A stretch of 42,302 nucleotides of DNA from a virus. Taxonomy: Duplodnaviria; Heunggongvirae; Uroviricota; Caudoviricetes. The notes below the pieces were generated by a model that was not told the origin of the DNA, ran no database searches, and worked only from the letters and a program-made list of their open reading frames with translations. Location of the stretch: the IMG/VR virus record IMGVR_UViG_2713896905_000008; one strand, 5' to 3'. Shown one piece after another: positions 1-37,659 of this stretch. A program made the position numbers and the translations under genes. How positions within the stretch are numbered: position 1 is the stretch's first letter; each line of letters begins with the position of its first letter.

Positions 1-759
1 TTAAATTCTGGTCCTTACAATATCAACCTGAAGATTCTTATCTTGTGCAGATTGATAAATGACAAATCTCTTATTTCCTGCATTAAAAGAAGTAGACAAA
101 ACCAGACAATTATCATAACGGGCAAGGACATAATACCAACCATCATTATAATTAATCATTTCATATTCTTTCTTAAACTGTGGTTTGTAATATCCTGTCA
201 GAAATGAAAAAAGCCAAAAGTATGCCACAAAAGAGACCATCACAATCTCAAAAAAATGTTTTTTTATAAATGGCTTATCATAAAAGCATGATACCGATAA
301 AAATCGCCCGTAAAATCTTATCGCAATTGTAACACCCAGTGCAATAGCAGCTGACAGTAGCAAAAGAGGTACCTGAATCTTCTGTCTCAATATAGAAAAC
401 TCAATAATAGCCGGTACAAACAATAATTCCACAGCAAAATAAAGGCGAAATACATTTAGCTCCTGCATAGAGTGTTTTCTTTTCACTGCGAAAAAAAATA
501 CAACGCCAACACCCCAGCCGATAAGAAATATAGCTATGACAATAACTGCAAAAAATAAACTTCTGGCAACATCATCAACACCAGCACCTACAATCCACCA
601 TGGAAAGCCGTAGTAAAAAGAAGTGCCCCAGCCATAGAAATAAGCACTCCCCCACCCAAGGCATCCCATGTAGGCAATAAAAAGTGAAGAACTCCTGAGC
701 AGCGCACCATCCTTCATAACCACCTCAAAACAAGATGATAACATTGATTTACAATTCAT
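1..759 (-). CDS. polytopic membrane protein of unknown function (accessory gene in prophage remnant)
   Basis: Complete 252-aa ORF with stop at 1-3. Translation is dominated by hydrophobic helices (FFAVIVIAIFLIGWGVGVVFFFAV, LLLLSAAIALGVTIAI, IVMVSFVAYFWLFSFL). A+T-rich by eye. No family recognised. Confidence 0.45.
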   Translation of the reverse strand: MNCKSMLSSCFEVVMKDGALLRSSSLFIAYMGCLGWGSAYFYGWGTSFYYGFPWWIVGAGVDDVARSLFFAVIVIAIFLIGWGVGVVFFFAVKRKHSMQELNVFRLYFAVELLFVPAIIEFSILRQKIQVPLLLLSAAIALGVTIAIRFYGRFLSVSCFYDKPFIKKHFFEIVMVSFVAYFWLFSFLTGYYKPQFKKEYEMINYNDGWYYVLARYDNCLVLSTSFNAGNKRFVIYQSAQDKNLQVDIVRTRI

Positions 760-1003
760 AACAAAAGCAATTCAATGCCGTCAAGAGGCTATAGGCTAAA
801 AAACTCTATTACATTGTAGTCAGCATGTTTACTGCACAAGTACAATTCAGAGCATAAAAAAAACCACTCGGCGGCGGGTTTATACATTTCTTATAACATA
901 TCAAATTTGCACAAAATACATGGCTTTCAATCCAGTTTTACAATATAAAACGTGCTTCATTACACCCCTGCATTCAGTAAATGTCTCAGACCTGTTTTTG
1001 ATG

Positions 1004-1246
1004 TCACTCCCACCAGTGATACCAGCTCCTGGTATTCATAGGTCTTACGTCCGCCAGTTCGTTCTTCACACCCTGTGCCGCCAGCCAGATTAACTTCTTC
1101 AGCCGCTCCAGTGTTTTACCTGCAATTTTTCGTGAGCCTGACAGAGCCTTAAACTCGCTCCATGTCCACTGCGTTATGGCAACCTGATGCTCCCAGCGAA
1201 CATTTTCACTGTAACTCCAAAAGAAGTTCTGCCATATAAGACTCAA
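1004..1246 (-). CDS. hypothetical protein (prophage remnant)
   Basis: 80-aa ORF downstream of rusA on the same strand. No motif recognised; may be a gene fragment. Confidence 0.2.
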   Translation of the reverse strand: MSLIWQNFFWSYSENVRWEHQVAITQWTWSEFKALSGSRKIAGKTLERLKKLIWLAAQGVKNELADVRPMNTRSWYHWWE

Positions 1247-1249
1247 ACA

Positions 1250-1675
1250 TCATTCATTCCCCAGTTCGGTGATGGTCAGTTCCAGCTTCCCATCTTTGGT
1301 AACAGGCATATTCACAACACGGTAATCAACGACCTGAGTATCATCCAGCCAGAAACCTGCTTTGGTGAGTGCATCAAAAGCGGCTTTTTGCAGATTATCC
1401 AGGTCACGGCGACGACGATCCGGCATATGGCACTCGATGCAGATTTTCACAGGAGTAACCAAACCCGATATCCAGCATTGAGTCTTTGATGATTCGGGCA
1501 ACGTTATCGCGGTATGCCTGCCCTTTTGCACTGATGTGCGTGCGCCCGCAATTATGCGATAGTAGCGATTATTGATCGACGGCCAGGGTAGTGTGATGTT
1601 GTAAGTATCCACACCTTGATTACCTCCTCTTTCAGCCAGATAACCAACTTTCTCGCCATACCTTCCTGTGCGCAC
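1250..1675 (-). CDS. rusA: RusA-family Holliday-junction resolvase, probably disrupted
   Basis: N-terminal [17 protein letters not shown] and C-terminal [38 protein letters not shown]...ELGNE match RusA as I recall it. The central ~31 codons match RusA only when read in another frame ([31 protein letters not shown]), implying two compensating frameshifts. True start is probably internal to the ORF-track span. Confidence 0.65.
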
Positions 1676-1857
1676 TCTTTTGCATACCCAGCGTCAACAA
1701 AGTGTGTGCGGTGATCGATGCTACATTTCACGTCTGAGTGCTGACTACTAACCAGTTCCACAATCTCAACACTGGTCATGGATGCCTTGTCGTTAAAAAT
1801 TTCTGTACTCACTCTTCCTCCTTTGGGATAAATTCTTTTGATAACGTGCGCATCCAC
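1552..1857 (-). CDS. YbcO-like (DUF1364-type) prophage protein, N-terminus atypical
   Basis: C-terminal [30 protein letters not shown] resembles the nin-region protein that precedes rusA in DLP12-type prophages. Overlaps rusA start as in that arrangement. Confidence 0.45.
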
Positions 1858-1930
1858 ACCTATTGGTGCCGAACCCGTCTTAAGTTATCCTTATGATTTA
1901 TATAAATAAAATAATCAAAGAAGGTTCGAC

Positions 1931-2182
1931 ATGGATTTTGCAACAATTACAAGTAGTGTTGTGTTGAGTGCATGTGTCGCAGGCCTGGCTTCGCTGATTA
2001 ATAGTGCCTGGCAGCGCAAATCAGAACGAAAAATTGAAGTAGAGCATCGGGCTGCAGAAACTCGGGCAAAAATCAGAGAAATGGCTCTTACCCTTGCATT
2101 GAAGGAATGGGAATCTCACCAGGCCGTATCGAAAGCTAAAGGCGGGACGGTCAGCGGCCCGGAAGTTTACGTATTTCGATAA
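1931..2182 (+). CDS. small membrane-anchored protein, unknown function
   Basis: 83-aa ORF with an N-terminal hydrophobic helix (ITSSVVLSACVAGLASLINSAW) followed by a charged helical region. Preceded by AAAGAAGG SD-like sequence. Confidence 0.3.
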   Translation: MDFATITSSVVLSACVAGLASLINSAWQRKSERKIEVEHRAAETRAKIREMALTLALKEWESHQAVSKAKGGTVSGPEVYVFR

Positions 2183-2633
2183 CTTCGTATGCTCAACTCG
2201 ATAGATTCATGATTGAGAATCTCAGACAGACTCAATACGACGCGATGTGCGCAGTCGCAGTGATTCAGGCAGAGATCGAGCGATATCGTGAGAAAAATGG
2301 GCTACTAATGCCATAACCACAGTCAGCGCTTGTCATCTTTCCAAATTCTCATATCAGACTTGCGCCCGATAAACCGACGAAAACTATTTAAAACCCATCG
2401 AGTGAAATAATCTCTAAAACCAAAGAGATACCAGGTGAAAATATTCACGATAAAATGCCCGGTCAGAGCCCCCGATACCGCATGCAAGAACAGTAAAAAA
2501 ATCATATGTGTTCATAAATATCAGCCCTCATCGTTTTGCCTGGCATATCCTTTACCGGCAATCTTCTGTATGCGCTAAGCCTGGATACCACATCACACTT
2601 GATTTAGATCTGTCACGGCGAACTGCCGTTCAA

Positions 2634-3134
2634 GATAAATGCGGGATGCTACTTGCTCTTGTTACTGGACAACGTTTAGGCGATATCTGCAATTTGAAAT
2701 TCTCTGATATCTGGGACGACATGTTGCACATTACTCAGGAAAAAACCGGTTCAAAACTTGCTATTCCGCTTAACCTGAAATGCGATGCTCTGAATATTAC
2801 CCTTCGTGAAGTTATATCTCAGTGCAGGGATGCTGTTGTTAGTAAATATCTGGTCCATTACCGTCACACAACCTCTCAAGCAAACAGAGGGGACCAGGTT
2901 TCTGCAAATACTCTGACAACGGCTTTTAAAAAGGCCAGGGAAAAATGTGGCATAAAATGGGAGCAAGGAACTGCGCCCACATTTCATGAGCAGCGATCTC
3001 TGTCAGAACGGTTATATCGGGAACAGGGTCTGGATACGCAAAAGTTGTTAGGTCATAAATCCAGAAAAATGACCGACCGATACAATGATGATCGTGGTAA
3101 AGACTGGGTTATCGTAGATATGAAAACAGCATAG
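2634..3134 (+). pseudogene. 5'-truncated tyrosine integrase (paralogue of the int at 41175-42302)
   Basis: Translation LLALVTGQRLGDICNLKFSDIWDD...HEQRSLSERLYREQGLDTQKLLGHKS...DRYNDDRGKDW aligns with the C-terminal ~165 aa of the full integrase at the window end. The N-terminal two-thirds are absent; the upstream ORF sequence is unrelated. Confidence 0.8.
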
Positions 3135-3144
3135 AAAATAGCCA

Positions 3145-3180
3145 GTTTTGGGGAAGGGTTTTGGGGAAAGTTTTGGGGAA
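3145..3180. repeat. three tandem copies of GTTTTGGGGAA between the truncated integrase and the icd terminator
   Basis: cagTTTTGGGGAAGGGTTTTGGGGAAAGTTTTGGGGAAga read directly. Confidence 0.7.
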
Positions 3181-3190
3181 GATTTTACAT

Positions 3191-3224
3191 CATCATAAAA
3201 CAACGGGCGTGTTATACGCCCGTT
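3191..3224 (-). terminator. intrinsic terminator following the icd 3' end
   Basis: Perfect stem AACGGGCG/CGCCCGTT with loop, followed on the minus strand by GTTTTAT. Lies about 20 nt past the icd-like stop. Confidence 0.6.
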
Positions 3225-3240
3225 TCAATATTTAACACAT

Positions 3241-3414
3241 GTAGTGATTACATATTCTTGATGATCGCGTCACCAAACTCTGAACATTTCAGCAGCTTAG
3301 CGCCTTCCATCAGACGTTCGAAGTCATAGGTTACGGTCTTCGCATTGATTGCGCCTTCCATACCTTTAACAATCAGGTCTGCGGCTTCAGTCCAGCCCAT
3401 ATGGCGCAGCATTA
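3241..3414 (-). pseudogene. icd: duplicated 3' end of isocitrate dehydrogenase gene (icdC-like att-site duplication)
   Basis: Minus-strand translation [54 protein letters not shown] is the Icd C-terminus. Homology stops abruptly at about 3414, where A+T-rich phage DNA begins. Confidence 0.85.
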
Positions 3415-3471
3415 GTTAGATAACTAAATCGTAACTATTTGACATAGCAGCATAATTTTACTAATTTGCAT

Positions 3472-3506
3472 ATAACTCATTAGCTCTTAGCATTTCCATA
3501 ACTCAT
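3472..3506. repeat. two direct copies of ATAACTCATT next to the att junction (candidate integrase arm-type sites)
   Basis: cATAACTCATTag at 3472 and cATAACTCATTga at 3497, within 100 bp of the icd/phage boundary. Confidence 0.35.
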
Positions 3507-3645
3507 TGATTATCAACATGTGTTTTTGAGTTTTGATAACCATTTTTAGCATAAAAATAGCAGTTAACATTTGCAGAAGTTAAGATCAGAGAAAATTTTT
3601 ACCCTGTAGGGTATTACGTCTTAAATGTGACTTTAATAAACAATT

Positions 3646-4479
3646 TTATTTCTGTAATCGATTTATATTAACGTAAAGCATCTCGATTAGTTCTTTTGCA
3701 TTTTTACTATAGTGCAATTCTCTATGGCAATTCGGACAAAGGGCAACACAGTTATCTGTTGTATCAGCACCACCTGAAGACAGGGGAATTACATGATGCA
3801 CTTCCAAGTATGGGCTTCCATCATTTAAATAAAACGGAGCATTTTTACCACAGTTTTCACATATACCTTTACTTTGCTGTAAAATCCAAGCTTTTACCAT
3901 CGGATCTCGGACATAAACTTTTTGTAGTCTTTCTACCTCAACTGGTTTCCTGGAGCCCTCGGGCTGACTCAACGTTTTCTTAATTAATTTACTAACCCTC
4001 ATATTCAGAAGCGATTCATCATCTGTAGGCTGAGAAAGCTCTGATAGTTCTCCACGTATTATAGACACCCAAAAACTGTCACTATAAATACCTGGAACAT
4101 TTATCAATATTCGTTTCGTTCTATTGCCGGAAGGAATTTCCTTTCTCCCCGTACGACTAAAATAAGCCTGATAACCACACATCTTCAAGCGTATATCGCG
4201 GGGGCTATTACCAATCAAAGTAAAATATTCACCAGGATGGATTTTTCTTTCATCCAAAGAATGCATATGTTTTCTGACTGATGATGACGCCAGATATACT
4301 ACGACTTGGGATACACCAGAATCAACCAACCGTTCAATGATATAATCAAGAGCGATATTGTAATCTTTGTTTCTGTCACCCGGCCCCCACGACTCAAGGA
4401 TTAGACCATAAACACCATCCTCTTCACCTATCAAACACTCAGCTTTCAGTTCAATTCCATTATTATCAAAAACATGCAT
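3646..4479 (-). CDS. mcrA: McrA, type IV 5-methylcytosine-specific restriction endonuclease (HNH)
   Basis: 277-aa translation matches E. coli McrA essentially end to end as I recall it (MHVFDNNGIELKAEC...CENCGKNAPFYLNDG...HHVIPLSSGGADTTDNCVALCPNCHRELH). Same position as in e14, next to pin. Confidence 0.9.
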   Translation of the reverse strand: MHVFDNNGIELKAECLIGEEDGVYGLILESWGPGDRNKDYNIALDYIIERLVDSGVSQVVVYLASSSVRKHMHSLDERKIHPGEYFTLIGNSPRDIRLKMCGYQAYFSRTGRKEIPSGNRTKRILINVPGIYSDSFWVSIIRGELSELSQPTDDESLLNMRVSKLIKKTLSQPEGSRKPVEVERLQKVYVRDPMVKAWILQQSKGICENCGKNAPFYLNDGSPYLEVHHVIPLSSGGADTTDNCVALCPNCHRELHYSKNAKELIEMLYVNINRLQK

Positions 4480-4585
4480 AATATTAATCTTTAATCAATT
4501 TTTTACGACAATACTACTTTTATTGATAAAATTGCAACAAGTTGCTGTTGTTTTATTTTCTTTTGTACACAAAGTGACTTTAACT

Positions 4586-5147
4586 TTATTTATCCCCTGC
4601 AGGAAACATCTTATACAAAGTTGACACACCAACATCATAGATGATCGCCACCTTCTGGCGAGGAACTCCTGATGCAATTAATCGTCCGGCCTGTTCCCAT
4701 TGTTCTGGTGTAAGTTTGGGACGACGTCCACCAATTCGTCCCTGTGCGCGAGCAGCTTCCAGTCCAGCTTTTGTTCGTTCAACAATCAGTTCACGCTCCA
4801 TTTCAGCCAGGGCACCCATCACATGAAAAAAAAAAGCGCCCCATTGGGGTACTGGTATCAATTGAATCCGTCAGACTACGAAAGTTAATGCCTCGTTCGC
4901 GCAACTCCTCCACCAGCACGACAAGATGCCGCATACTGCGCCCCAGTCGGTCCAGTTTCCAGACCACCAGCGTGTCACCTGCCAATAATGTCCTGAGCAG
5001 TTTTTTCAGTCCTGGTCTGTCGGACTTAGTTCCACTGATTTTATCCTCAAAAATCCGCTCACATCCCGCGCAGTTCAGTGCATTACGTTGCAAATCGGTG
5101 TTCTGGTCATTTGTTGACACGCGTACATAGCCAATAAGCATGATCAT
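4586..5147 (-). pseudogene. pin: Pin/Gin/Hin-family serine DNA invertase, interrupted by a +1 frameshift
   Basis: N-terminal ORF 4803-5147 (MLIGYVRVSTNDQNTDLQRNAL...SIDTSTPMGRFFF) and C-terminal ORF 4586-4861 (FFFHVMGALAEMEREL...) are consecutive parts of Pin. The frames diverge in an A10 run at 4826-4835; with nine A's the reading is continuous. Confidence 0.85.
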
Positions 5148-5168
5148 CCCTCTGAATAAAAACCAGAG

Positions 5169-5702
5169 ATGATGCCAGTTAGCCGTTATTTCTGCATTTT
5201 CATAAACGTTGGTTTGGGAGAAGGTTCGGCATTACCCGTTGGAGTGCCTGTTCCGTGGCCTTCTGCCACTCCGCCAACAGGCTGGCTGAAATGCAACGGT
5301 GCGGCATTTTCTGCTGAAGAATACCCGGAACTGGCAAAGGCTTATCCGGCAAATAAATTACCTGATTTACGCGGTGAGTTTATTCGTGGCTGGGATGACG
5401 GGCGTGGAGCTGACAGTGGTCGGGGATTATTAAGCTTTCAAAAAGCCACTCTGGTTGAAAGTTTTGGTCTGGTCAGATCACCAACCACTGGCTCTTATCG
5501 TCTGGTTACCAGACCGACAGAAACTGTTTCTGATAATACGTCTAACTATATGACGACTGATTATGATTCCCGTGAAGGTTTATATTCCCCTGCAACAGCA
5601 TACCCCTCTATCGAATTGCCACCAACTGGAGCAGGCGCAGGGGCTGGTTTTAGGGTTCGACCAAGGAATATTGCATTTAACTATATTGTGAGGGCTGCAT
5701 AA
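5169..5702 (+). CDS. alternative tail-fibre C-terminal domain (S'v-like), not joined to the constant region in this orientation
   Basis: Reads in frame through the hix-like site (INVGLGEGSA versus [10 protein letters not shown] in the expressed fibre). Followed by a Tfa-type gene. Confidence 0.7.
   Translation: MMPVSRYFCIFINVGLGEGSALPVGVPVPWPSATPPTGWLKCNGAAFSAEEYPELAKAYPANKLPDLRGEFIRGWDDGRGADSGRGLLSFQKATLVESFGLVRSPTTGSYRLVTRPTETVSDNTSNYMTTDYDSREGLYSPATAYPSIELPPTGAGAGAGFRVRPRNIAFNYIVRAA
5197..5222. promoter_or_regulatory. left recombination site of invertible segment (hix/gix-like, inverted relative to 7057-7082)
   Basis: Reverse complement TTCTCCCAAACCAACGTTTATGAAAA shares the half-site TTCTCCCAAACCAA with the site at 7057-7082. 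Presumed crossover dinucleotide at 5209-5210. Confidence 0.7.
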
Positions 5703-6304
5703 TGGATAACGCCATATTAAATAGCGAGATTATCGCCACCAAAGCAGGGAATATTACAGTATATAACTATGATAGTGAAACCCGGGAATATATTTCCACT
5801 TCAAATGAATATCTTGCTGTGGGTGTCGGTATTCCTGCATGTTCCTGTTTAGATGCACCAGGCACATATAAGGCTGGTTATGCTATCTGCCGTTCGATGG
5901 ATTTAAACTCATGGGAATATGTGCCAGACCATCGCGGTGAAATCGTCTATAACACCGAAACGGGAGACGCCAAAGAAATCACAACTCCGGGTGATTACCC
6001 CGAAAAAACAACCACTATCGCCCCGTTAACGCCATACGATAAATGGGATGGTGAGAAATGGGTGACGGATACCGAGGCACAGCATAGCGCCGCAGTAGAC
6101 GCGGCAGAAGCACAACGTCAGTCACTGATTGATACTGCAATGGCTTCCATTAGTCTGATTCAACTGAAATTGCAGGCCGGACGGAAGTTGACGCAGGCAG
6201 AAACAACCCGACTTAACGCCGTGCTGGATTACATTGACGCGGTGACGGTAACAGATACCAGCACCGCGCCGGATGTCATCTGGCCTGAACTGCCGGAGGC
6301 GTAG
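5702..6304 (+). CDS. tail fibre assembly protein (alternative copy, U'-like)
   Basis: 200 aa. C-terminal region (LQAGRKLTQAETTRLNAVLDYIDAVTVTDTSTAPDVIWPELPEA) is typical of the Tfa family and parallels the ORF at 6276-6719. Confidence 0.8.
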   Translation: MDNAILNSEIIATKAGNITVYNYDSETREYISTSNEYLAVGVGIPACSCLDAPGTYKAGYAICRSMDLNSWEYVPDHRGEIVYNTETGDAKEITTPGDYPEKTTTIAPLTPYDKWDGEKWVTDTEAQHSAAVDAAEAQRQSLIDTAMASISLIQLKLQAGRKLTQAETTRLNAVLDYIDAVTVTDTSTAPDVIWPELPEA

Positions 6305-6719
6305 GCCATTCAATATCTGGAGCACTGGAAGTATCGACCAGTTCCAGTGCGTCCAGATAATCCAGCCACAAATTATATTGCGCCAGTTCCTCACCTTTCA
6401 GACGACCAATAGCGGCTTTACCGGGCCATTGCTTACTGTTCATGTGTTCGTTGGCCTGATTAAGCAATAATTTTCTTTCTGATTCTGCCTGTTGAATAAG
6501 TTCTTCATGTGATGGTTGAGGTATTTCAGCCCATGTGGGAAAACCATTTACCCCTGCAACTCGGATTTTCCCTTGTGGCGGTTCCGCTATATATTTTACA
6601 GAAATGTTATCAGGAATATCTAATGCATCAGCGGGCCATGTTCCATTTACTTCATAAGTATTTTTTAAATTAACAGCATAAAATGCATTTTCCGAAGGGG
6701 AATAAATATATTGATTCAT
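6276..6719 (-). CDS. tail fibre assembly protein (U-like, in expressed orientation)
   Basis: 147 aa. C-terminus AIGRLKGEELAQYNLWLDYLDALELVDTSSAPDIEWPTPP is Tfa-like. Directly follows the tail-fibre gene. Confidence 0.8.
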   Translation of the reverse strand: MNQYIYSPSENAFYAVNLKNTYEVNGTWPADALDIPDNISVKYIAEPPQGKIRVAGVNGFPTWAEIPQPSHEELIQQAESERKLLLNQANEHMNSKQWPGKAAIGRLKGEELAQYNLWLDYLDALELVDTSSAPDIEWPTPPAVQAR

Positions 6720-6720
6720 A

Positions 6721-7359
6721 TTATCTTCCTATTGCGATAATCATAGTTCCATACAAACCATTTCCGGTTGATACTTTTAAGGTTACTGATGTCCTTGTTG
6801 TCGTGTACCCCATAAGTTTAAAGGTCGGAGCAGCCGTTAATGTGCCATCAGACCATAAGGCACTAACAGCCAGTGCACCTGAAGGAAATGCAATAGGGAA
6901 ATTACCAGTAGTTCCGTTAGTGTCCGCCCCATAAACATTCATCGAAAACATTTGAACAATATGACCACTTGGTAACTGAAACCAGTTTTTGCCAGATGGA
7001 AATGCAGACATATCTGGTATCTGATTTTCTCCTGTTCCCACATTCCGTTTTGCCGCTTCTCCCAAACCAAGGTTTTCGAGAGCCGTTTTCACCGTGCCAT
7101 CCGATTTGATATCGCCAAACGGATTATTGCGGCTTAACAGCAGCGCGCGAAGTGCGGTAAGCAACTGATCGTGCCGCCCCTTCTCCAGGCTGGCACCGGA
7201 TGCCTCCACCACGCTGCAAAGCTCCTCCTGCAACATGTCAAAGTAGTCATCATCCAGATCGGTGGCAGGCGTGCCGGTCTGGGGGTTACCACGGGTAAAA
7301 CCGTTCTTACCCGCGCCGAACTTATCCTTCTGCGCGGTTTTCGTGTCTATACGATGCAT
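6721..7359 (-). CDS. tail fibre protein (constant N-terminus joined to currently expressed variable C-terminus; stfP-like)
   Basis: 212 aa. The hix-like site lies in frame at ALENLGLGE. Sits between the gp48-like gene and tfa, as in e14 and Mu S. Confidence 0.8.
7057..7082. promoter_or_regulatory. right recombination site of invertible segment (hix/gix-like)
   Basis: TTCTCCCAAACCAAGGTTTTCGAGAG; imperfect dyad around a central AA, reminiscent of 26-bp hix/gix sites. Located inside the tail-fibre coding region. Confidence 0.7.
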
Positions 7360-7362
7360 GGA

Positions 7363-7947
7363 TTACTCCGGATATTTAAAAATTACGTAGGTATGCGACG
7401 GGCAGAGTTTGTTAAGCACACACTCGACAACGGTGTCACCCCAGATACGCAGTGCGGAATCACAGGGATCGCCACATGTCATCCAGGTGGTGTTGGCGGC
7501 GGCTGGCATGTTGACCTGCCAGTAATACCGCCATTCCGGCGCATTCACAGCGTCAGTACAGGCCGATGAGCAGGTGAACGTGCTTTTGTCGTATCGCGTG
7601 ATGGTGGCATCCGGTCTGCCCAGGGCAGCAAGCTGTGCAAGATAAAAATCCTCGTTGATGCCGCCCGCCAGGTTAACCTTCGCATCCAGCCGTTGCTGAC
7701 GCTGGCGAAGGGTCTGTGTCCCTGCGGGAATACATTCATCCGGCAGACCGCACAGACGCTCCCAGCGGTTTATCAGTTCATTGGTGGTGCGCGGATCCAG
7801 CTCCCGCATCAGGGCATCCGCACGCTGATGAACGCGGGTTAATGACGGTGCCGCACCGGCAATCGCCGGATCGCTGGCTGACCACGCCGGACCGGGGGGC
7901 AACAGTGCCGACAACAGACGGATGTAATCATCGTTTGTCACGTCCAT
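7363..7947 (-). CDS. Mu gp48-like tail protein (YmfQ-like, DUF2313-type)
   Basis: 194 aa, between the baseplate J-like gene and the tail fibre; this length and position match e14 ymfQ. Confidence 0.7.
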
Positions 7948-8996
7948 GAAATCGTCCCCAGTACCGCCAGTTCATTTTTTGCAATGGAGATATTGTCTGC
8001 CGGTGCAAGCAACTGATGGCTGTATTCCCCGTTCGCACCGGAAATCGCCTCACTGATACGCGATACCTTCAGTTCTCCCTGCGGATAACCATCACGCAGC
8101 AGGAACGAACGCAACTCCGCGGTAATGGCAGCCCGTATTTCCGGTGTGTCCGGCGTCACACGGATATGAAAATCCACCGTATGTGCCACCGGCCTGAATA
8201 CATACAAATCAGAGCCTGCCACCGGGGCCAGTGGCCCGATATGTTGTCTTGCTGCCGTTTCCGTTGATTCTTCCGGAATGGGATTAATCAGGTCACTGCT
8301 GGCAATCATCACACCGACAGTTCCCGTTCCCATCCAGTGACGGTATGTCCATGCGCGGGTAATGCCGGGCACTTCTTTAGCCCAGACGACATAGTCCCCG
8401 TCAGCCCCGCCCTGAGGCGTCCAGTAATACCGCTCAATGACGCGGGCGCGCCACGTTTCCAGCTCTTCAGTATCAAATCCACCTGTCAGGGTATCTGCCA
8501 CGCCGGAAGACGGCAGACCATTAACCGGCGTGACCAGGATTAATGCCGTACCGTCGTCAGCGTTACCGACCGCGCCTGCACTTGAGCAGGCGATCGGCAC
8601 GCGCAGGACACCACCGGAGCTGGTTGCATCGGCAGTTGCCGTGTACTGAACCAGGTCATCGCGCTGAATAACACTCCCGGCGGTCACCTTCAGGCCATCG
8701 CTGACACCTTCCCAGCGCATATACCCGCTGGCAGCCGTGGCCCCCTTGCGCGGACACCGTTTCATCGCAGCATGTCGCGCCAGCCAGGACTCATCGCACA
8801 GGTCAGGCAGCATGTTCATTGCCAGATAATCGATGTATCCGTAAACCGTATGCAGCGCCGCCGCATACACCTTTGCCCGCACGTCTTCATCCATGCGCCG
8901 GAGCGTGTCGCTGACGTCCAGCCTGGCGAATAAATCGTTACGGAGCATACTGATATTTTCTGCCAGCGTCGGGCGCTGAAATTCACTGTCCGCCAT
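7938..8996 (-). CDS. baseplate J-like protein (Mu gp47-like)
   Basis: 352 aa; position in the Mu-like baseplate gene order. Confidence 0.75.
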
Positions 8997-9411
8997 GCGT
9001 TATCGCACTCCACAGATCATCAAAAGAAATCATTACCGGTCCGTCACGACGCCAGAGAGTGATACTGTTACCCAGTTCATTAATCCCGGTGCGGCGGATA
9101 TCCAGATCAATACGGGACACCACGCCGTCATCAATCATCCATTGCAGGCATTCGCGGATATACCCCCTTACCGTCAGCACCAGCTGATTGGTCAGTTTGC
9201 TGCGCTGAAGCAGCCACAGCCGGGAGCCGTAACGGTCATTCTGTACCGCAGGCCAAGTATCCCCCCACCATCCCATCGGGACGTCGGCGTTGTCATCAGG
9301 CTCCGCCCGCCGCCAGGTAAACAGGGAAATCACCACGGCGCGGGTCAGCGGATCCAGCGGTGCGCTGGCGCAGGTGCGTTTACCGTTCACCGTCAGCCAC
9401 AGTTCCATCAT
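8983..9411 (-). CDS. baseplate protein, Mu gp46-like
   Basis: 142 aa between the gp45-like and gp47-like genes with overlapping stops and starts. Confidence 0.6.
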   Translation of the reverse strand: MMELWLTVNGKRTCASAPLDPLTRAVVISLFTWRRAEPDDNADVPMGWWGDTWPAVQNDRYGSRLWLLQRSKLTNQLVLTVRGYIRECLQWMIDDGVVSRIDLDIRRTGINELGNSITLWRRDGPVMISFDDLWSAITHGGQ

Positions 9412-11057: not shown

Positions 11058-12329
11058 TCACCGGCACAAAGCCGGGATGCGTAATGGCATTACGCCGGAT
11101 AATGTCCGCGTCACGCGCCGCGTTATCAAACCAGGTCGCCGCCAGCACCAGCGCGGGTAAAACCTCACCCGGCGCAGCGCCAGAAACAGCGCATCACTGG
11201 TTGTACGGGACAACTCCTTATCAATTGCCGTATTCAGTGTGTCGCGAATGTCGGTCAGTTCTTCCCACGTTGGCAGGTCAACCGTGTTTTTCACCGCCGG
11301 TGCATTGTTCAGTGCCGGATGCGTGACAGAAGGCCAGCCGGTGCTCTGCGCGGGTGTTGTTGACTGCCCCACTGTGGCATTCTGCATCACCGCGGAAGTT
11401 GTGGGCGCAGGCAATCGTGTGACGGCATACGCCGCTTCGCTGATTGCGGTCGTACGAAGGGTGCTGGCAACCACGTTACGCTGCTGCGTCGCCGTGGCGG
11501 TGGTTTTACTGTCCGTTTTCCAGACGCCGCGCGGTTGCAGATCGCTGCCGAGGCTGACACCGGAAAGCGTTTTGATCATGGTGACCAGGTCGCTGGCGTT
11601 ACCATAAAGGCGTTTCCCGGTACGCCACATTTTCTGCACCTGCTCAACGAAATTTTTGCCTGACGATGGCGGCGGCAGAAGTACCGAGATATCCCCCTGC
11701 AACAGCCTGGCGGCATCCGATACGGCAGAATCCACCACTTTCATCGCATCAGAAACATACCCAAGCATTGTGCTGGCATTACCGACGACGTCGTTCTGCA
11801 CAAAATCTGCCACGCCATCGATACTGAAACCACTGAAGCTGTCACTGATGCAGTCATCCAGTGCAGAACAGGATGACATCAGCGTCTGCGCCGTCGCCGC
11901 ACCTGAAGTGGGGTAAGAGAGTTCTCCCGCTTCGACAAACTTCAGGTCAAAGCGGACAATACGCCCTTCACTCTTCGATGTGCTGACCCGAACTTCCCCG
12001 TCAACACAGACTTTCAGCTCACCGTAAGTCGGATGGACAAGCGTGCCGGGACCGGGTTTATTCAGCGCGTCAATCAGGCGATCGCGCTGGTCAAAGCAGT
12101 CATCTCCCACCACATAAGCTGTGATGGACGGGCGGAAAGTGATTTTCCCCAGGTCTTCGGTATAGGGTTTGTCGCGGTTCGGATATTCGTGTGTTTCCAC
12201 ACGACGGCCGGTTCCCGCACTTTCTTCTTCAACCTTAAACGGCACACCGCGAAATGACGCGTCCTGAAGTCTGTCTTTCCACGTCATATAAACTCCGTAC
12301 ATAAAAAATCCCACCGGAGTGGGACTCAT
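11058..12329 (-). CDS. DNA circulation protein (Mu N, gp43-like)
   Basis: About 410 aa downstream of the tape measure gene. N-terminal WKDRLQDASFRGVPFKVEEES is characteristic. Start is probably an internal Met. Confidence 0.65.
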   Translation of the reverse strand: MSPTPVGFFMYGVYMTWKDRLQDASFRGVPFKVEEESAGTGRRVETHEYPNRDKPYTEDLGKITFRPSITAYVVGDDCFDQRDRLIDALNKPGPGTLVHPTYGELKVCVDGEVRVSTSKSEGRIVRFDLKFVEAGELSYPTSGAATAQTLMSSCSALDDCISDSFSGFSIDGVADFVQNDVVGNASTMLGYVSDAMKVVDSAVSDAARLLQGDISVLLPPPSSGKNFVEQVQKMWRTGKRLYGNASDLVTMIKTLSGVSLGSDLQPRGVWKTDSKTTATATQQRNVVASTLRTTAISEAAYAVTRLPAPTTSAVMQNATVGQSTTPAQSTGWPSVTHPALNNAPAVKNTVDLPTWEELTDIRDTLNTAIDKELSRTTSDALFLALRRVRFYPRWCWRRPGLITRRVTRTLSGVMPLRIPALCR

Positions 12330-17169: not shown

Positions 17170-17672
17170 CTGTGTCGTCGCTCCGGCTTCAGTGATTTAC
17201 GCAATTCCCGCGCCAGAAAATAGCGTGTCCAGCTGCGGTTCTTTTCAAGCGTTTCCACCATGAAGTTATTACGTGGAGCCAGTCGCCAGCCGCTGCCACC
17301 GGATGCACCACGATGATGGCTGCGACGACGCTTTGCCCCTCGCCTCACGCCATAGAACAAAAAAGCCGGATAAAAATCACCGGTGATACGGCGGTTTCCC
17401 TCACCATTACGCTGGTTAGGGGCTATACGTGCCATAAAACCAGGGCGATGTTTACTGGCTCTGGGTACCATGTAACCAATCGAACGAGCCAGGCGTCCGG
17501 TCTGATAACCGGGGTTTTCACCCGGTGCCGACCGCGCACGGCGCATCACCAGCCGACGGGCATCACGCATATGACGCTGACCAATCGTGACAAACGCCCG
17601 CCGGACACGGGCGCGGTTAAAGCGCATCTCCGCGGGCTGCTGAAAATCAACGTGCGAAAAGGAAGTCGTCAT
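17166..17672 (-). CDS. virion morphogenesis protein (Mu G-like)
   Basis: 168 aa, very basic; position between head-completion and tail genes. Confidence 0.55.
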   Translation of the reverse strand: MTTSFSHVDFQQPAEMRFNRARVRRAFVTIGQRHMRDARRLVMRRARSAPGENPGYQTGRLARSIGYMVPRASKHRPGFMARIAPNQRNGEGNRRITGDFYPAFLFYGVRRGAKRRRSHHRGASGGSGWRLAPRNNFMVETLEKNRSWTRYFLARELRKSLKPERRHR

Positions 17673-27406: not shown

Positions 27407-28582
27407 ATGGATATAACTTGTTTAGAATGTGGCAATGTTCTTGACGACCCAACTGTAGCTTGCGATAAATGCGGCGCCACGCCTCATGTTGTAGTGCTGG
27501 GCAAACAATCGTACTTTCCTATTGGTGCTGTAACAGCAAATCTTGAAAAAAATGATTCAAGAGCATTTGATTATCGATTAGGTGAAGTTTGGGATCTAAA
27601 AAATGAAGTCACATCTGAATTCATAACCAGAATTGAGAAAAAATTTAGCCGAAAAAACAAATTTCATAACTTCCTAGACTCAGATCACAACCCTTCATCC
27701 ATTCCTACGATCCTAAAAAAATACATTAATAAAAATAATGAATTCATTGATTTATCTAGAGCTATAATAGAGAAGCTTAAACATAATGCTAATAACGAAT
27801 CGAGAGTTGCCCAACTTCAGGGGGGGAGCGTTGTTTTCATCCACTATAAGTCTACCGAACCAGAGGATTTGGGAAAACTTCTAATCGTAATGGTTGATAA
27901 ACAAAGCGCCTATGACTTTGATTCGGATAAGTTGACCCCAACAAGATTAAATCCAATTAATACCGATGCCTTACGGCAGGCTGCGATGTTCGATTTAACT
28001 TTATTCGAAGCCAGTTATCCAGAAAACAAGGGTGACTCATATGTACATTTCTTGCAAGGTAAATCTAAAAGCGATTTTTTCAAAGACTCATTAGGTTGCC
28101 GACATGATTCGGACAATAAAAGAAGCATTCAGCAATTATTCAGTGCTATAGATATTTTTGCTAGTAAAAACTCACTCGGTCGTGTACTGCGTGATACTAT
28201 TGACAATGAAGTTAAATCCTTACTGGAAAAAAAATCAAAAGATAAATACGGAAATAAGTCCGTTAAGATAGAGGATATTTCAAAAATAATTGACTCATGC
28301 CTGACTGATTCACACAAATGTAAGGGAACGTTTGTCGATTTTGTTAATCTTAATGGTTTCCAGATTGATCCTCAATTTGAACCAACTCCTAAAGCAGCTG
28401 AAAGCGCGCTTACAATTGAAGTGGCAGATAACGACAATAATTTTAAGTTGAAAATAATGCGTGGAGCTATTGGAGACGAAAAGTCAAATAAGCCTGTAAT
28501 TCTCACTGACAACAAATGCGAAATTGTGATAAAATTGAGTCAGGCAAATTATGATGAACTCAAAAGATATAGAGACAGCTAA
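27407..28582 (+). CDS. zinc-ribbon protein with NdpA/YejK-like (NA37-type) region; first gene of a cargo pair
   Basis: 391 aa. N-terminal CLECGN...CDKCG four-Cys ribbon. Central region aligns by eye with YejK: GGSVVFIHY / GGFVLFCHY and YVHFLQGKSKSDFFKDSLG / [22 protein letters not shown]. A+T-rich. Confidence 0.6.
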   Translation: MDITCLECGNVLDDPTVACDKCGATPHVVVLGKQSYFPIGAVTANLEKNDSRAFDYRLGEVWDLKNEVTSEFITRIEKKFSRKNKFHNFLDSDHNPSSIPTILKKYINKNNEFIDLSRAIIEKLKHNANNESRVAQLQGGSVVFIHYKSTEPEDLGKLLIVMVDKQSAYDFDSDKLTPTRLNPINTDALRQAAMFDLTLFEASYPENKGDSYVHFLQGKSKSDFFKDSLGCRHDSDNKRSIQQLFSAIDIFASKNSLGRVLRDTIDNEVKSLLEKKSKDKYGNKSVKIEDISKIIDSCLTDSHKCKGTFVDFVNLNGFQIDPQFEPTPKAAESALTIEVADNDNNFKLKIMRGAIGDEKSNKPVILTDNKCEIVIKLSQANYDELKRYRDS

Positions 28583-28584
28583 TA

Positions 28585-29799
28585 ATGACAATTGCTGATG
28601 ACTTATCAAGATTAGCGCAGATTATTAACGGAGCCTCAAGCAGAGTTGAGGGCTACTACACTGTCATAAGTCTTGAAGAAAGCATTGTTATTGTAAATAG
28701 TTCTGAAATAATTAGACTGTTACAATCTATAGGTTATAAAAAGGCAACAAACTGCATCGAAAATAATGAAATTTGGCTAGATCGCCAAGCTTCATCTTGG
28801 GATGACGCTATAATTTATGAGAATGTTGAGTCTTTTTGGTCTAGAGTAAACACCCAAAACGCTCTTCCGAAAAATTATATCATCGGAACGCCGTTAATAC
28901 TCCCTACTTCTAAGAATGAAAGCATCGAAAAAATCCATATTTTCTTTATGTGGAAAGATATCCTTTCATTAATTGCTGATCATCATAACAGTGACTGCTC
29001 TGTCTTATTTTTCACCAATGAAGACAAAAGTTATACAGTCGAACTCACGCATTTTTTACAATATAGCGAGATTAATCGCTTATCGAACTCGTCTCTTAAA
29101 TATGAAATTATAAAGGAGCTTCTCGACACAATAAAAATCAATGATTTACACAAAAGCGAGCGCAAGCTCGTTATACGTTCAGCCATAAACGAAGTATTTA
29201 AAGCAAATGGTACATTCAATTTCTTTGACTTGCTTAACTCTACTGAACTCGTCAGAAAAAAATATGATGAACTATATGAGATTTACACAAAGAGGTTTTC
29301 TGTAAATAAAATTCTTAACGAACTCGATGAGAAAAATCTTGAGTTCACGAGTAAAATTAACGAATTCATATCATCTAATCAGACAAAAGCATTGACTATT
29401 CCCGGTGCATTAATAGCAGCTGGTGGCTTAGTGAAGGCTAATGAAACAACCGAAGCAATATTGATTATCGCAGGACTTTGGATGATAAAAAAAGTCAATT
29501 ACATTTCTATTGAGATATTCAATGAAACATTCGACAACTTACGTTCTCGAGTGGAGTCCGCTTTCGATAAGTATTTAAAGTTTGAAGAAAATAAAGAAAT
29601 CAAAGATAATGCAGATAGTATTAAGAGTAGCATTACAGGTTTGATTGATAAAGCTAAAAAAAGGATGAGAACTGTTAAATATCTCGCATCAGCCATGTTT
29701 TATGGAGGCCTTATTTACGTTGGATATAAACAGTTCCCAGTCTTTTTTGAAAAATCGGCAGTAAATCTATTTTATTTTTTATGCCATACTATAAGCTAA
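28585..29799 (+). CDS. protein with C-terminal two-helix membrane anchor; second gene of the cargo pair
   Basis: 404 aa, starts 2 nt after the upstream stop. Hydrophobic helices ALTIPGALIAAGGLV...AILIIAGLWMI and YLASAMFYGGLIYVGY. No enzymatic motif recognised. 3' end overlaps the Q gene stop convergently. Confidence 0.6.
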   Translation: MTIADDLSRLAQIINGASSRVEGYYTVISLEESIVIVNSSEIIRLLQSIGYKKATNCIENNEIWLDRQASSWDDAIIYENVESFWSRVNTQNALPKNYIIGTPLILPTSKNESIEKIHIFFMWKDILSLIADHHNSDCSVLFFTNEDKSYTVELTHFLQYSEINRLSNSSLKYEIIKELLDTIKINDLHKSERKLVIRSAINEVFKANGTFNFFDLLNSTELVRKKYDELYEIYTKRFSVNKILNELDEKNLEFTSKINEFISSNQTKALTIPGALIAAGGLVKANETTEAILIIAGLWMIKKVNYISIEIFNETFDNLRSRVESAFDKYLKFEENKEIKDNADSIKSSITGLIDKAKKRMRTVKYLASAMFYGGLIYVGYKQFPVFFEKSAVNLFYFLCHTIS

Positions 29800-36069: not shown

Positions 36070-36756
36070 GTGAAAACACTGGCAGAACGATTAAAGATAG
36101 GTAGAGAGAAAGCTGGCATGAGCCAAGCTCAACTAGCTGAAAAAATTGGACTTTCACAACAATCTGTAGCCAAAATAGAGAATGGCGAAACTCTACAACC
36201 GCGCAAAATTAAAGAAATTGCAAAAGTTTTAGGTGTATCACAAAAGTGGTTACAACTTGGTATTGAAGACAACGCATCCATACCTGATCTTGTTGTAAAA
36301 GAAGCAGAAAGCACCGCATTAGACCCCGATATTTTCGTAAACATTCCTGTTTTAGATGTCGAGTTATCGGCAGGTAACGGATGTCTGGCTGAAATAGTTG
36401 AATCAGCTATTGACTGGTTTCCGTTAAGAAGAGCAGATTTGAGAAAATCTGGCGTATGTGCATCTAATGCCAAGATCGTAAAAATATGGGGGAACAGTTT
36501 ATTACCGGTTCTCAATAATGGAGATCTTGTTGCCGTTGATATTTCTCAAACCATTCCTATTCGTGATGGCGATCTTTATGCCGTACGAGATGGTGTATTG
36601 CTAAGGGTTAAAATACTTATCAACTTACCTGACGGTGGCTTGATTCTTAGAAGCTTCAACAAAGATGAGTACCCAGATGAAATACTCACCTTTGAAGATA
36701 GACGAGCCAGAATTCATGTTATAGGTAGGGTATTCTGGTCATCGCGAACTTGGTAA
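36070..36756 (+). CDS. CI-like prophage repressor (HTH plus LexA/S24 peptidase-like domain)
   Basis: 228 aa; N-terminal HTH MSQAQLAEKIGLSQQSVAKIENG; C-terminal S24-like region (IWGNSLLPVLNNGDLVAVD). Probable GTG start. Confidence 0.8.
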   Translation: MKTLAERLKIGREKAGMSQAQLAEKIGLSQQSVAKIENGETLQPRKIKEIAKVLGVSQKWLQLGIEDNASIPDLVVKEAESTALDPDIFVNIPVLDVELSAGNGCLAEIVESAIDWFPLRRADLRKSGVCASNAKIVKIWGNSLLPVLNNGDLVAVDISQTIPIRDGDLYAVRDGVLLRVKILINLPDGGLILRSFNKDEYPDEILTFEDRRARIHVIGRVFWSSRTW

Positions 36757-37659
36757 TGCATCGAAAAGCATTTCTTCAGAAATAATTTTAAGTTTTGCAC
36801 CATTATCATCCCTATAAGATATAGCTTTTTCGATCTTCCTTCCGTGACTTGAGAATTTCCAATCACGGGAGGAAAGCGTCCCAATTACTAAAAAATCCAA
36901 CTTTTGAGTAATTCCACTACTGATGTTCCCACCAGCATTTTTAATCAAATTTTCAACTACGGCTCTCTTTCCTGCAACAAAAGTGCCTGTAAGACAATAG
37001 GTTTTACCCTCTAACTCTATCGAAGCCCCTACATCAATAGGCAGCCTGGTCGCCAAACCATCCACCACCCCACTTTCCAAGTCACATCCTGTGAAGTCTA
37101 CTAATGCCTTATGTAGAGTTAAACTCTCATCTTCAGTAATAACCCCATCTTTAAGAATTTCCTTTACAAGTGCATAAAGTTTTTTTCCTGGGTAGTTGTT
37201 CTTCAAAGCTCCATTTTGCTCAAGCCACCAATTAAGATATCTTATTTCTTCTTGAGTTAAGTTCCGATCAGCAATTAATCCTTTACATAGTCCATTAAGT
37301 AAATGGACATCTACATCCTTGGAGTAAAAATCAATTTCAGGGATATCAAGAATTTCCCTCTGTATTTGGAGAAGGCTATTTTTAAGGTCATCACGTTCTT
37401 CTGATGTGATTATTCCATCCGCAAGAATATCCGACACCCGTGCTGATAGACTTTTTATAACTCCATTATTGATAATCTGCTTTGCTTCAAGTAACCATGT
37501 ATCTAAGTAAAGAACCTCCTCTTCACGGACAACTCCATCTGCAATGATTCCATCAATGATGCTAATCAAGTTAGCAAATAACTTGTCCCGGTTCTGTGTG
37601 TAATTAAAAGCGTAAAGCGCGTCTTCCATACAACCTCCTTTTTTTGATAATCCTTGCAC
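36739..37659 (-). CDS. BRCT-domain protein with four N-terminal ~35-aa repeats, unknown function (cargo at rexAB-equivalent position)
   Basis: C-terminus LEGKTYCLTGTFVAGKRAVVENLIKNAGGNISSGITQKLDFLVIG...KLKIISEEMLFDAL parallels the LigA-type BRCT fold. N-terminal repeats each contain ..ADG.IT.EE...L.. A+T-rich; convergent with cI. Confidence 0.55.
   Translation of the reverse strand: MQGLSKKGGCMEDALYAFNYTQNRDKLFANLISIIDGIIADGVVREEEVLYLDTWLLEAKQIINNGVIKSLSARVSDILADGIITSEERDDLKNSLLQIQREILDIPEIDFYSKDVDVHLLNGLCKGLIADRNLTQEEIRYLNWWLEQNGALKNNYPGKKLYALVKEILKDGVITEDESLTLHKALVDFTGCDLESGVVDGLATRLPIDVGASIELEGKTYCLTGTFVAGKRAVVENLIKNAGGNISSGITQKLDFLVIGTLSSRDWKFSSHGRKIEKAISYRDDNGAKLKIISEEMLFDALPSSR

Follow-up and report, generated by a model that had tools for sequence, protein, structure and literature searches.

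The tail-fibre locus of the 42,302-nucleotide viral stretch analysed here (42.3 kb; hereafter the window) raises two questions: what kind of inversion system it carries, and whether this copy can still act as the switch of host range that was read from its sequence. The original prediction described a complete, Mu G-segment-like invertible tail-fibre module. The comparative analysis leaves little doubt that the region belongs to a prophage of the e14 family and is its P segment, an inversion switch of the Gin/Hin/Cin/Pin type acting on a tail-fibre gene. The system is therefore already known, as the long-established Pin/P-segment switch of the Escherichia coli e14 prophage family, and this is an ordinary copy of it.

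The inverted 26-bp sites with a common half-site that had been claimed for the two ends of the module are real (Table 1). The invertase-side site reads TTCTCCCAAACCAACGTTTATGAAAA as its reverse complement and the fibre-side site reads TTCTCCCAAACCAAGGTTTTCGAGAG. The two agree at 21 of 26 positions, have the exact 14-mer TTCTCCCAAACCAA in common and, when read in the same sense, both carry a central AA. Internal dyad symmetry extends to 16/26 positions in the invertase-side site and to 18/26 in the fibre-side site. A separate repeat search recovered the site core as a 20-nt inverted repeat (5204-5223 and 7056-7075) with 95% complementarity. With up to two mismatches allowed, the 14-mer occurs exactly twice in the whole window, once on each strand, and both matches are exact and inverted; a shuffle control at two mismatches gave 0.33 expected matches, with at least two matches in 4 of 100 shuffles. 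A shufflon or other multiple-inversion arrangement (R64 Rci, Min or the four-variant P2-like loci) was rejected on the grounds that the 42.3 kb hold only these two core copies.

Between the crossover points lie two convergent cassettes, each comprising a fibre C-terminus and a Tfa chaperone gene. This content had been predicted, and is borne out by the ORFs and by Pfam matches, of which those to Caudo_TAP span the length of both tfa products. The convergent tfa genes overlap by 29 bp. In the expressed cassette the tfaP-like ATG is placed 1 nt past the stop codon of the variable part (Sv), and in the silent cassette the tfaE-like start overlaps the stop codon of the alternative variable part, Sv' (TAATG). 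Sv is 98% identical in DNA to the fibre of ET979, and the TfaP-like protein is 92% identical to its ET979 counterpart and 46% identical to K-12 TfaP; the TfaE-like protein is 90% identical to K-12 TfaE and 99% identical to that of APEC 102026. Sv' matches the tip of T4 gp37 (2xgf, E = 5.7e-16) and short tail fibres. Its residues 19-80 and its last 14 residues are conserved relative to K-12 and ET979, the middle is divergent and the distal region is hypervariable. Together with the stub that precedes the site, the silent ORF spans 5169-5702 on the + strand. A promoter and terminator scan of 4500-7500 gave no signal above shuffled background, and so does not bear on whether the silent cassette or the stub is transcribed independently.

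Table 1. Coordinates, in the window, of the recombination sites, the cassettes and the invertase gene.
Feature	Position	Strand	Remarks
Disrupted pin (DNA invertase) gene	4586-5147	-	N-terminal 114-aa ORF 4803-5147 and C-terminal 91-aa ORF 4586-4861, in different frames
T10 run (A10 on + strand)	4826-4835	-	+1 frameshift; intact alleles carry TTTTTCTTT
Candidate recombinational enhancer (Fis-site region)	5048-5127	-	5' end of pin, within coding sequence; homology only
Stub ORF start (MMPVSRYFCIFINV), 14 residues	5169-5209	+	Outside segment, between pin and site
Invertase-side 26-bp site	5197-5222		Inverted orientation; crossover TT (AA on other strand) at 5209-5210
Invertible segment	5210-7069		1,860 bp between crossover points
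Silent variable part (Sv'), 159 aa after GLGE	5210-5702	+	Phage Tail Collar PF07484, E = 1.2e-14
TfaE-like chaperone gene, silent cassette, 200 aa	5702-6304	+	Caudo_TAP, E = 1.4e-31
TfaP-like chaperone gene, expressed cassette, 147 aa	6276-6719	-	Caudo_TAP, E = 3.6e-33
Expressed variable part (Sv), 111 aa after GLGE	6721-7069	-	Gp53-like_C, PF21882, E = 2.7e-8
Expressed fibre ORF, 212 aa	6721-7359	-	Sc + Sv
Fibre-side 26-bp site (pix-type)	7057-7082		Constant/variable joint of fibre gene; crossover AA at 7069-7070
Fibre constant part (Sc)	7070-7359	-	Outside segment; with first segment bases encodes residues 1-101, ending ...ENLGLGE

As had been proposed, translation in the fibre frame gives G-L-G-E at both sites. 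When the exchange between the two central dinucleotides was carried out in silico, it produced an uninterrupted 260-aa ORF; the alternative C-terminus does not fall out of frame, and the 111-residue gp53-like tip is swapped for the 159-residue collar-type tip behind the same 101-residue constant part, which includes GLGE. Counted with GLGE, the exchanged ends are 115 and 163 aa long, in good agreement with the ~115 and ~165 residues first estimated, and the variable parts show no sequence relationship to each other (BLASTP E = 1.3). After the swap each tip keeps its own Caudo_TAP gene, with stop and start codons overlapping or adjacent. The same inversion fuses the stub and GLGE to Sv; the resulting StfE2-like ORF of 129 aa precedes the tfaP-like gene. 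Moreover, the fibres of the window, K-12 (StfP), ET979 and APEC 102026 are nearly invariant up to residue 101 and diverge immediately beyond it.

The closest known system is the e14 P segment of K-12 (stfP-tfaP-tfaE-stfE-pinE; Plasterk & van de Putte, 1985, as cited in PMC4272514; see also PMC12529663). Both 26-bp sites are identical to those of e14 at 26 of 26 positions, the invertase-side site corresponding to the pinE-proximal one. The gene order and orientation ymfQ-stfP-tfaP-tfaE-stfE-pinE-mcrA-icdC, the integration locus at icd and the duplicated icd 3' end are likewise the same, as are the fibre constant part ending in GLGE and the conserved collar-type N-terminal portion of Sv'. Across mcrA-icdC the identity to E. 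coli is 98%, which points to a source genome of Escherichia/Shigella type. The two copies nevertheless differ in several respects. The segment is 1,797 bp in K-12; the tip expressed here is another gp53-like allele that has diverged past residue 101, TfaP is only 46% identical and the distal Sv' is different; and pin, ~92-95% identical in DNA, is intact in K-12 and frameshifted here. In addition, K-12 e14 is a 15-kb remnant, whereas the prophage here is nearly full length and SfV/SfII-like. The combination of a gp53-like with a collar-type tip adds one further allele pairing to a highly mosaic family.

Similarity to the G segment and Gin of phage Mu (and to the C segment and Cin of P1) is one of design. 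It comprises a constant N-terminus encoded outside the segment, two convergent cassettes of the Sv-U type, inverted 26-bp sites, and an invertase gene directly outside the segment, on the same strand and 67-68 bp from the site (site centre to invertase ATG measures 68.5 bp here and 67.5 bp in Mu). Once repaired, Pin shares 79% identity with Gin (see below), and homologues of the Mu baseplate proteins gp43-48 are encoded upstream. However, the sites match Mu gix at only 18 of 26 positions, the Mu segment is longer (3,058 bp), the constant part of Mu S measures ~170 aa rather than ~101 aa, the fibres of 212 or 260 aa compare with 504 aa in Mu, and the phage is non-transposing, as judged from its HK97-like head genes, lambda-type integrase and CI repressor. 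The description as Mu G-segment-like thus holds for an in-frame tip and chaperone switch of the Gin/Pin type but not for a new module, since the locus is an orthologue of the known e14 P segment.

The third comparison is with the Shigella phages SfII, SfI and SfV, whose fibres are non-invertible and with which the prophage has 98% DNA identity across the terminase, head and tail genes and the same fibre constant part. The SfII fibre gene, encoding ~216 aa, contains an exact copy (26/26) of the fibre-side site at the GLGE joint. Over the 22 kb of SfII examined there are, in contrast, one site, one tip and one tfa gene, with neither a second cassette nor an annotated invertase, and O-antigen modification genes follow tfa.

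If the segment inverts, both orientations should be represented among relatives, and indeed they are; the source DNA here is a single assembled window. E. coli APEC 102026 and TW10828 carry the same cassette pair with the whole segment flipped and the breakpoints within the 20-bp core, and the 260-aa product predicted above is identical at 256 of 260 positions to the annotated fibre of both genomes. The alignment to APEC 102026 switches strand exactly at 5204-5223 and 7056-7075, inside the 20-bp core. Junction probes found the window-type junction of the pin side with Sv' in 943 of 5,426 genomes and the flipped-type junction, with Sc and Sv' contiguous, in 514, so that about 35% are flipped by this measure. 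Inversion of the e14 P segment has been detected by whole-genome sequencing and PCR (PMC4272514); the segment is inverted by PinE, PinQ and PinR, and 33% of 562 genomes had it inverted (PMC12529663). Assemblies of such loci may legitimately disagree in orientation. The segment of the window most likely sits in the gp53-like orientation. Its exact cassette combination was absent from complete E. coli genomes, where the best match reached 88% coverage at 93% identity. In vB_EcoM-689R6, the closest phage record, the prophage region is incomplete and rearranged and has a single site, so that it says nothing about orientation.

The completeness claimed for the module extends to the invertible segment itself but not to the adjacent invertase gene, which a frameshift interrupts. 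Both a Resolvase (E = 1.2e-37) and an HTH_7 domain (E = 1.1e-14) are present in pin, distributed over its two ORFs. Alignment with pinE of K-12 and ET979 places one extra T in the window gene, and the T10 run arose from TTTTTCTTT through a synonymous C>T substitution and the gain of one T. Removal of one T restores a protein of 184 aa with 97.3% identity to ET979 PinE and 79.3% to Mu Gin. As it stands, the frameshift deprives the N-terminal product of the end of the catalytic domain and of the whole HTH DNA-binding domain, and the intact reading frame needed for an autonomous system is lacking. The T10 run is the sole homopolymer of at least nine bases in the window. A 41-mer bearing the frameshift had no match among GTDB representative genomes, IMG/VR or JGI metagenomes, and the in-frame T9 40-mer matched only one locus (L007). 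That locus is itself decayed, with pin lacking its 5' third and one site kept. In a separate search, a probe for the 5' allele of pin matched a 716-bp contig of Escherichia sp. that carries a mosaic invertase gene and breaks off within the recombination site.

The 5' end of pin also contains the candidate recombinational enhancer. This 80-nt stretch is identical at 60 positions to Mu gin and at 71-72 to intact pinE genes, and 15-mers of the form G-N13-C are centred ~97 and ~146 bp from the site centre, at positions as in Mu. In the Hin system the proximal Fis site is ~100 bp from hixL (PMC3798978). A scan with a crude Fis consensus score and the G-N13-C pattern yielded no discriminating, correctly spaced pair, and the enhancer function is predicted from homology.

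Taken together, these data suggest how the P segment would operate. The fibre gene starts outside the segment, and residues 1-101 presumably join the Mu-like baseplate; the gene then crosses the fibre-side site, and whichever cassette faces it would supply the C-terminus, with its putative receptor-binding role, and the translationally coupled, matching Tfa. Pin, a small serine invertase, would bind the two inverted sites, presumably aided by the Fis-bound enhancer, cut at the central AA, rotate and religate, flipping 1,860 bp. The flip would trade the gp53-like tip and TfaP-like chaperone for the collar-type tip and TfaE-like chaperone.

The copy studied here retains an intact DNA substrate, with its two sites, its two cassettes and the stretch homologous to the enhancer. 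Because a one-base frameshift disrupts its own pin gene, however, this copy is probably locked. Flipping would then occur only through a paralogous invertase elsewhere in the genome (compare PinQ and PinR acting on K-12 e14) or through rare restoration of frame at T10, and the present activity state of the segment, which we infer from the condition of pin, is uncertain. The locus illustrates a common path of decay: the invertase is lost first, and the DNA substrate that survives it remains open to the invertases of other prophages. Beyond annotation the locus has little significance, and the best label for it is P segment of the e14 family, with an invertible tail-fibre cassette of the Pin type and a pinE pseudogene.

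A second lesion is found in the surrounding prophage, which retains integrase, CI-type repressor, terminase, portal, head and Mu-like tail genes. A 73-bp out-of-frame deletion in the Mu gp43-like tail gene replaces the last ~70 residues of the product. Both this deletion and the pin frameshift look real, because no other 1-bp indels separate the window from SfII in 17.2 kb. For the same reason a sequencing or assembly error was considered an unlikely source of the frameshift (the 17.2 kb align at 98% with zero gaps); the frameshift could still be such an error, resting as it does on a single homopolymer call. The two lesions make both autonomous switching and a working host-range role doubtful, and the statement that this is a host-range switch is consequently unsupported as a description of what the copy does now. 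e14 itself is not known to have a host-range role, and the sole inversion phenotype reported from experiment is the inhibition of T2 adsorption by a chimeric product (PMC12529663).

That phenotype is the starting point for a different reading, in which the host has exapted the segment as an anti-phage switch: an invertase acting in trans would fuse the 14-residue stub to the gp53-like tip, and the StfE2-like product would block phage adsorption. The 129-aa ORF obtained by in silico inversion has the required form, the stub is conserved in K-12 and ET979, and in K-12 StfE2 lowers T2 adsorption while PinQ, PinR and PinE all invert the segment (PMC12529663). A decayed cis invertase and tail gene beside an intact segment would also be consistent with selection acting on the segment and not on the phage. 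However, intact cassettes may merely reflect recent decay, and conservation of the stub is trivial given its overlap with the 26-bp site and the region upstream of pin. No promoter-like signal rises above background before the stub, and the K-12 mechanism is based on overexpression and docking. Moreover, the gp53-like tip has diverged strongly from K-12 StfP past residue 101 (63% identity overall), so the K-12 StfE2 phenotype is not transferable to this copy. An anti-phage role is unlikely. Two moron ORFs at 27407-29799 had no match in PADLOC.

The T10 run in pin might alternatively be leaky and prone to slippage instead of a dead lesion, with the frame restored in a minority of transcripts or cells. 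E. coli and Shigella both provide documented cases of RNA polymerase slipping on T/A runs of at least nine bases, mxiE being one example (PMC1088944). Such slippage, or T10/T9 slippage during replication, would yield a very low, stochastic level of invertase, adding a second stochastic layer over the inversion switch and throttling its rate. The idea is a long shot; if true, it would add a modestly interesting layer of control through regulated, low-level invertase. The T9 in-frame precursor allele does exist in nature, at the decayed L007 locus described above.

Returning to the P segment as such, it is very improbable that it still serves as an autonomous, functional host-range switch of a viable temperate phage, whose own invertase would flip it so that progeny carry either receptor specificity. 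In favour of this reading, the segment lacks nothing and keeps its frame, the nearly full-length prophage includes an integrase and a Mu-like tail, fibres of similar length with the same constant part are used by functional relatives, SfII among them, and the Sv' tip resembles known receptor-binding tips. Against this stand the loss of the catalytic-domain end and HTH from Pin, the deletion in the gp43-like gene and the apparent authenticity of both. Finally, a chance inverted repeat flanking a static mosaic of convergent cassettes is next to impossible despite the 25 pairs of short inverted repeats nearby, being refuted by the comparative data: the two 26-mers, the only such copies in the window, are identical to e14 sites inverted experimentally (PMC12529663), lie at the exact conservation break of the fibre and mark exactly the points at which the module is flipped in other genomes.

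Window positions 3248-9000 are collinear, in reversed order, with the right end of e14, the cryptic prophage of E. coli K-12, and both 26-bp recombination sites are those of K-12 e14 (26/26 positions each). Judged from this correspondence, the region is a P segment, carried by an e14-family prophage. In K-12, pinE inverts the adjoining segment, fusing stfE to ycfK/stfP, and clonal cultures hold both orientations, as seen by WGS and PCR (PMC4272514, citing Plasterk & van de Putte 1985 and Mehta et al. 2004). The K-12 segment is 1,797 bp long, with inverted repeats published as TTGGTTTGGGAGAAGG / CCTTCTCCCAAACCAA; PinE inverts it, as do PinQ and PinR acting in trans, and among 562 E. coli genome sequences 33% are reported to carry it inverted (PMC12529663). 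The system, its sites, enzyme, inversion and trans-activation are all already known from published work; the window copy is an orthologue that combines other alleles and whose invertase gene is a pseudogene.

Features of the window, with names from K-12 e14 collinearity where these apply
Feature	Position	Strand	K-12 e14 name or sequence
Membrane-like ORF, 252 aa	1-759	-	
RusA-like ORF (by eye from translation)	1250-1675	-	
Tyrosine integrase, C-terminal 208 aa, pointing at icdC	2508-3134	+	
icdC	3248-3412		icdC
mcrA	3646-4479		mcrA
Invertase gene	4586-5147		pinE
Silent fibre C-terminus, Phage Tail Collar domain	5169-5702	+	stfE'
Invertase-side site	5197-5222		TTTTCATAAACGTTGGTTTGGGAGAA
Tail-fibre-assembly gene, full-length Caudo_TAP match	5702-6304	+	tfaE
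Tail-fibre-assembly gene, full-length Caudo_TAP match	6276-6719	-	tfaP
Expressed fibre, 212 aa; C-terminal part (Gp53-like_C) inside segment	6721-7359	-	stfP
Fibre-side site	7057-7082		TTCTCCCAAACCAAGGTTTTCGAGAG
ymfQ	7363-7947		ymfQ
Baseplate J	7938-8996		baseplate J
ORF, 391 aa, NA37 nucleoid-associated-protein domain	within 27407-29799	+	
ORF, 404 aa, without Pfam match	within 27407-29799	+	
CI-type repressor	36070-36756		
Lambda-type integrase	41175-42302		

The inverted 26-bp sites with a common half-site, as first proposed, were borne out. Read in the same sense, they are equal at 21/26 positions and have an exact 14-mer in common, TTCTCCCAAACCAA, which occurs twice, once per strand, in all 42,302 bases with up to two mismatches permitted. 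An independent repeat search returned their core as a 20-nt inverted repeat, 95% complementary, at 5204-5223 / 7056-7075. The central dinucleotides are TT at 5209-5210 and AA at 7069-7070, and the crossover dinucleotide is common to both sites. A chance repeat was excluded as the explanation of the sites. A second, weaker inverted repeat (5176-5203 / 6996-7023; 28 nt, 79% complementary), in a register unlike that of the main sites, has one arm in the stub region, outside the segment, and the other in coding sequence of the expressed tip, inside it, and is possibly a chance match or the remnant of an older site.

ORFs and Pfam domains place between the sites, as predicted, a convergent pair of tail-fibre-assembly (tfa) genes, overlapping by 29 bp, and two fibre C-terminal regions, each tip being coupled to the gene for its cognate chaperone. 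Both sites encode G-L-G-E in the fibre frame, and simulated exchange at the central dinucleotides gave an unbroken fibre ORF of 260 aa, which agrees with the in-frame swap originally envisaged. The constant part of the fibre (Sc) comprises 101 residues; the variable parts, namely the expressed gp53-like tip and the silent collar-type tip (Sv'), comprise 111 and 159 residues (115 and 163 with GLGE, close to the ~115 and ~165 estimated earlier). Sequence comparison detected no similarity between the two variable parts, in keeping with the claim that they are unrelated, and the two Tfa proteins are alike only in their C-terminal ~80 residues (33% identity). An alignment of the fibres from the window, K-12 (StfP), ET979 and APEC 102026 barely varies over the first 101 residues (ending ...ENLGLGE), and divergence sets in directly after them, which indicates that the constant/variable boundary is exactly the crossover site. 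The solved structures matched by the collar-type tip include those of the T4 gp37 tip and of short tail fibres, and the gp53-like tip has a Pfam match only; we infer that both tips bind receptors.

The post-inversion fibre gene (Sc + Sv') was assembled in silico and searched against 5,426 complete E. coli genomes. In APEC 102026 and TW10828 it is one contiguous gene (100% coverage, 96% DNA identity), with 256/260 residues identical to the in-silico product, and the flanks are the same but the whole segment between them is inverted: ymfQ, Sc+Sv' and tfaE run in one direction, tfa and a gp53-like remnant in the other, and pinE follows. In base-level alignment to the flipped locus, the interior lies on the strand opposite to both flanks, and the alignments overlap within 5204-5223 and 7056-7075 only. 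At the sequence level, a strand change so confined is the signature of site-specific exchange. Orientation was counted with two 400-nt junction probes from conserved sequence. The flipped-type junction, Sc fused to a collar-type tip, was found in 514 genomes and the pin-side junction as in the window in 943; these counts, which are approximate and may take in related prophage systems and non-invertible fibres, correspond to ~35% flipped, consistent with the published 33%.

The invertase belongs to the Gin/Pin family. Its gene in the window has T10 where K-12 and ET979 have TTTTTCTTT, through a C>T substitution and the gain of a T. The first ORF of the broken gene holds most of the Resolvase domain and the second, in another frame, the remainder with HTH_7; in-silico loss of one T yields a 184-aa protein 97% identical to PinE. 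The frameshift looks genuine because 17.2 kb of the window align to phage SfII (98% identity) with zero gaps and because T10/A10 is the sole homopolymer of at least nine bases in the window. The T10 allele was absent from the GTDB species representatives, IMG/VR and JGI metagenomes searched, and the closest pinE alleles among the matches listed from complete E. coli genomes are ~95% identical and all annotated intact. In E. coli and Shigella, A/T runs of at least nine bases are prone to slippage (PMC1088944); slippage during transcription of the T10 tract might, though quite improbably, allow Pin to be made at a low level. In a decayed relative (IMGVR_UViG_2778261420_000020, 2380-4510), pin lacks its 5' third and carries T9, in frame, where the window has T10; one recombination site and one cassette are lost, leaving the fibre fixed as Sc+Sv' (256 aa) with tfaE. 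A 716-bp, high-coverage contig of Escherichia sp. MOD1-EC7003 begins exactly within the recombination site (AAACCAACGTTTAAG...), as expected of an assembler facing mixed orientations; the invertase gene on it is a mosaic that matches the window allele over the 5' ~200 nt and is diverged beyond.

Following the Hin/Gin family, from which these steps are taken (PMC3798978), an invertasome would assemble from Pin dimers bound to the two sites and an enhancer, occupied by Fis, ~100 bp from one of them; the catalytic serines would cut the central 2 bp, one subunit pair would turn 180 degrees and the strands would be religated. An enhancer-homologous stretch (~5048-5127) is present and conserved, but is coding sequence, and motif scans were non-discriminating. 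With an intact substrate and a broken cis enzyme, the segment most likely rests in the gp53-like orientation; the module is complete, as first described, in its DNA substrate but not in its frameshifted invertase gene. Only a paralogous invertase encoded at another place in the genome, of the kind shown to act in trans on K-12 e14 (PMC12529663), or a return to frame at T10 could make the segment flip.

The likeness to the Mu G segment held for the inversion logic, but the system is an e14-family P segment and its carrier is not Mu-like overall. The invertase lies on the fibre-operon strand in both, site centre and invertase start are 68.5 bp apart (67.5 bp in Mu), repaired Pin is 79% identical to Mu Gin, and the sites match gix at 18/26; in contrast, the segment is 1,860 bp rather than 3,058 bp and the fibre 212 or 260 aa rather than 504 aa.

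The segment may have an anti-phage role, exapted by the host. Its inversion would form a 129-aa ORF (stub-GLGE-gp53-like) analogous to K-12 StfE2, which lowers T2 adsorption (PMC12529663); however, this role stays speculative because the window tip is strongly diverged from that of K-12 and no signal stood out in a promoter scan. An autonomous, working host-range switch, the function originally assigned, is unlikely because of two lesions, the pin frameshift and a 73-bp deletion relative to SfII in a Mu gp43-like 'DNA circularization' tail gene (11058-12329, minus strand). The deletion junction lies near 11165-11174, between short GGGTGA/GGATGAGG repeats, and the resulting frameshift replaces the C-terminal ~70 residues, so that the otherwise near-complete prophage is probably tail-defective. 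Classified by sequence, the segment's carrier is an SfV/SfII-type temperate myovirus, with 98% DNA identity to SfII across terminase, head and tail genes. Short fibres are usual in this group (216 aa in SfII). Within the 22 kb of SfII examined there are a single fibre tip and a single tfa; a second cassette and an annotated invertase are absent. An exact copy of the 26-bp fibre-side site lies at the GLGE joint of the SfII fibre gene (17255-17280); the site may be conserved in this fibre family and a likely hotspot for cassette exchange.

Beyond the icd 3' duplicate, window 1-3134 is a second prophage remnant, to which no complete E. coli genome has a contiguous match; with icdC, the arrangement is that expected if two elements had integrated in tandem at icd. 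Between the integrase fragment and icdC, at 3144-3186, stand three tandem 12-13-bp copies of (A/G)GTTTTGGGGAA(G/A)..., which may be att-region or arm-type binding repeats. The two co-oriented ORFs at 27407-29799, on the strand opposite to the surrounding phage genes, resemble a moron or accessory cassette; PADLOC matched neither of them. Adjoining the CI-type repressor gene is an ORF of 306 aa (36739-37659, minus strand) whose C-terminal part carries a BRCT domain; PADLOC matches it weakly to the candidate defence family PDC-S48 (E = 2.7e-7).
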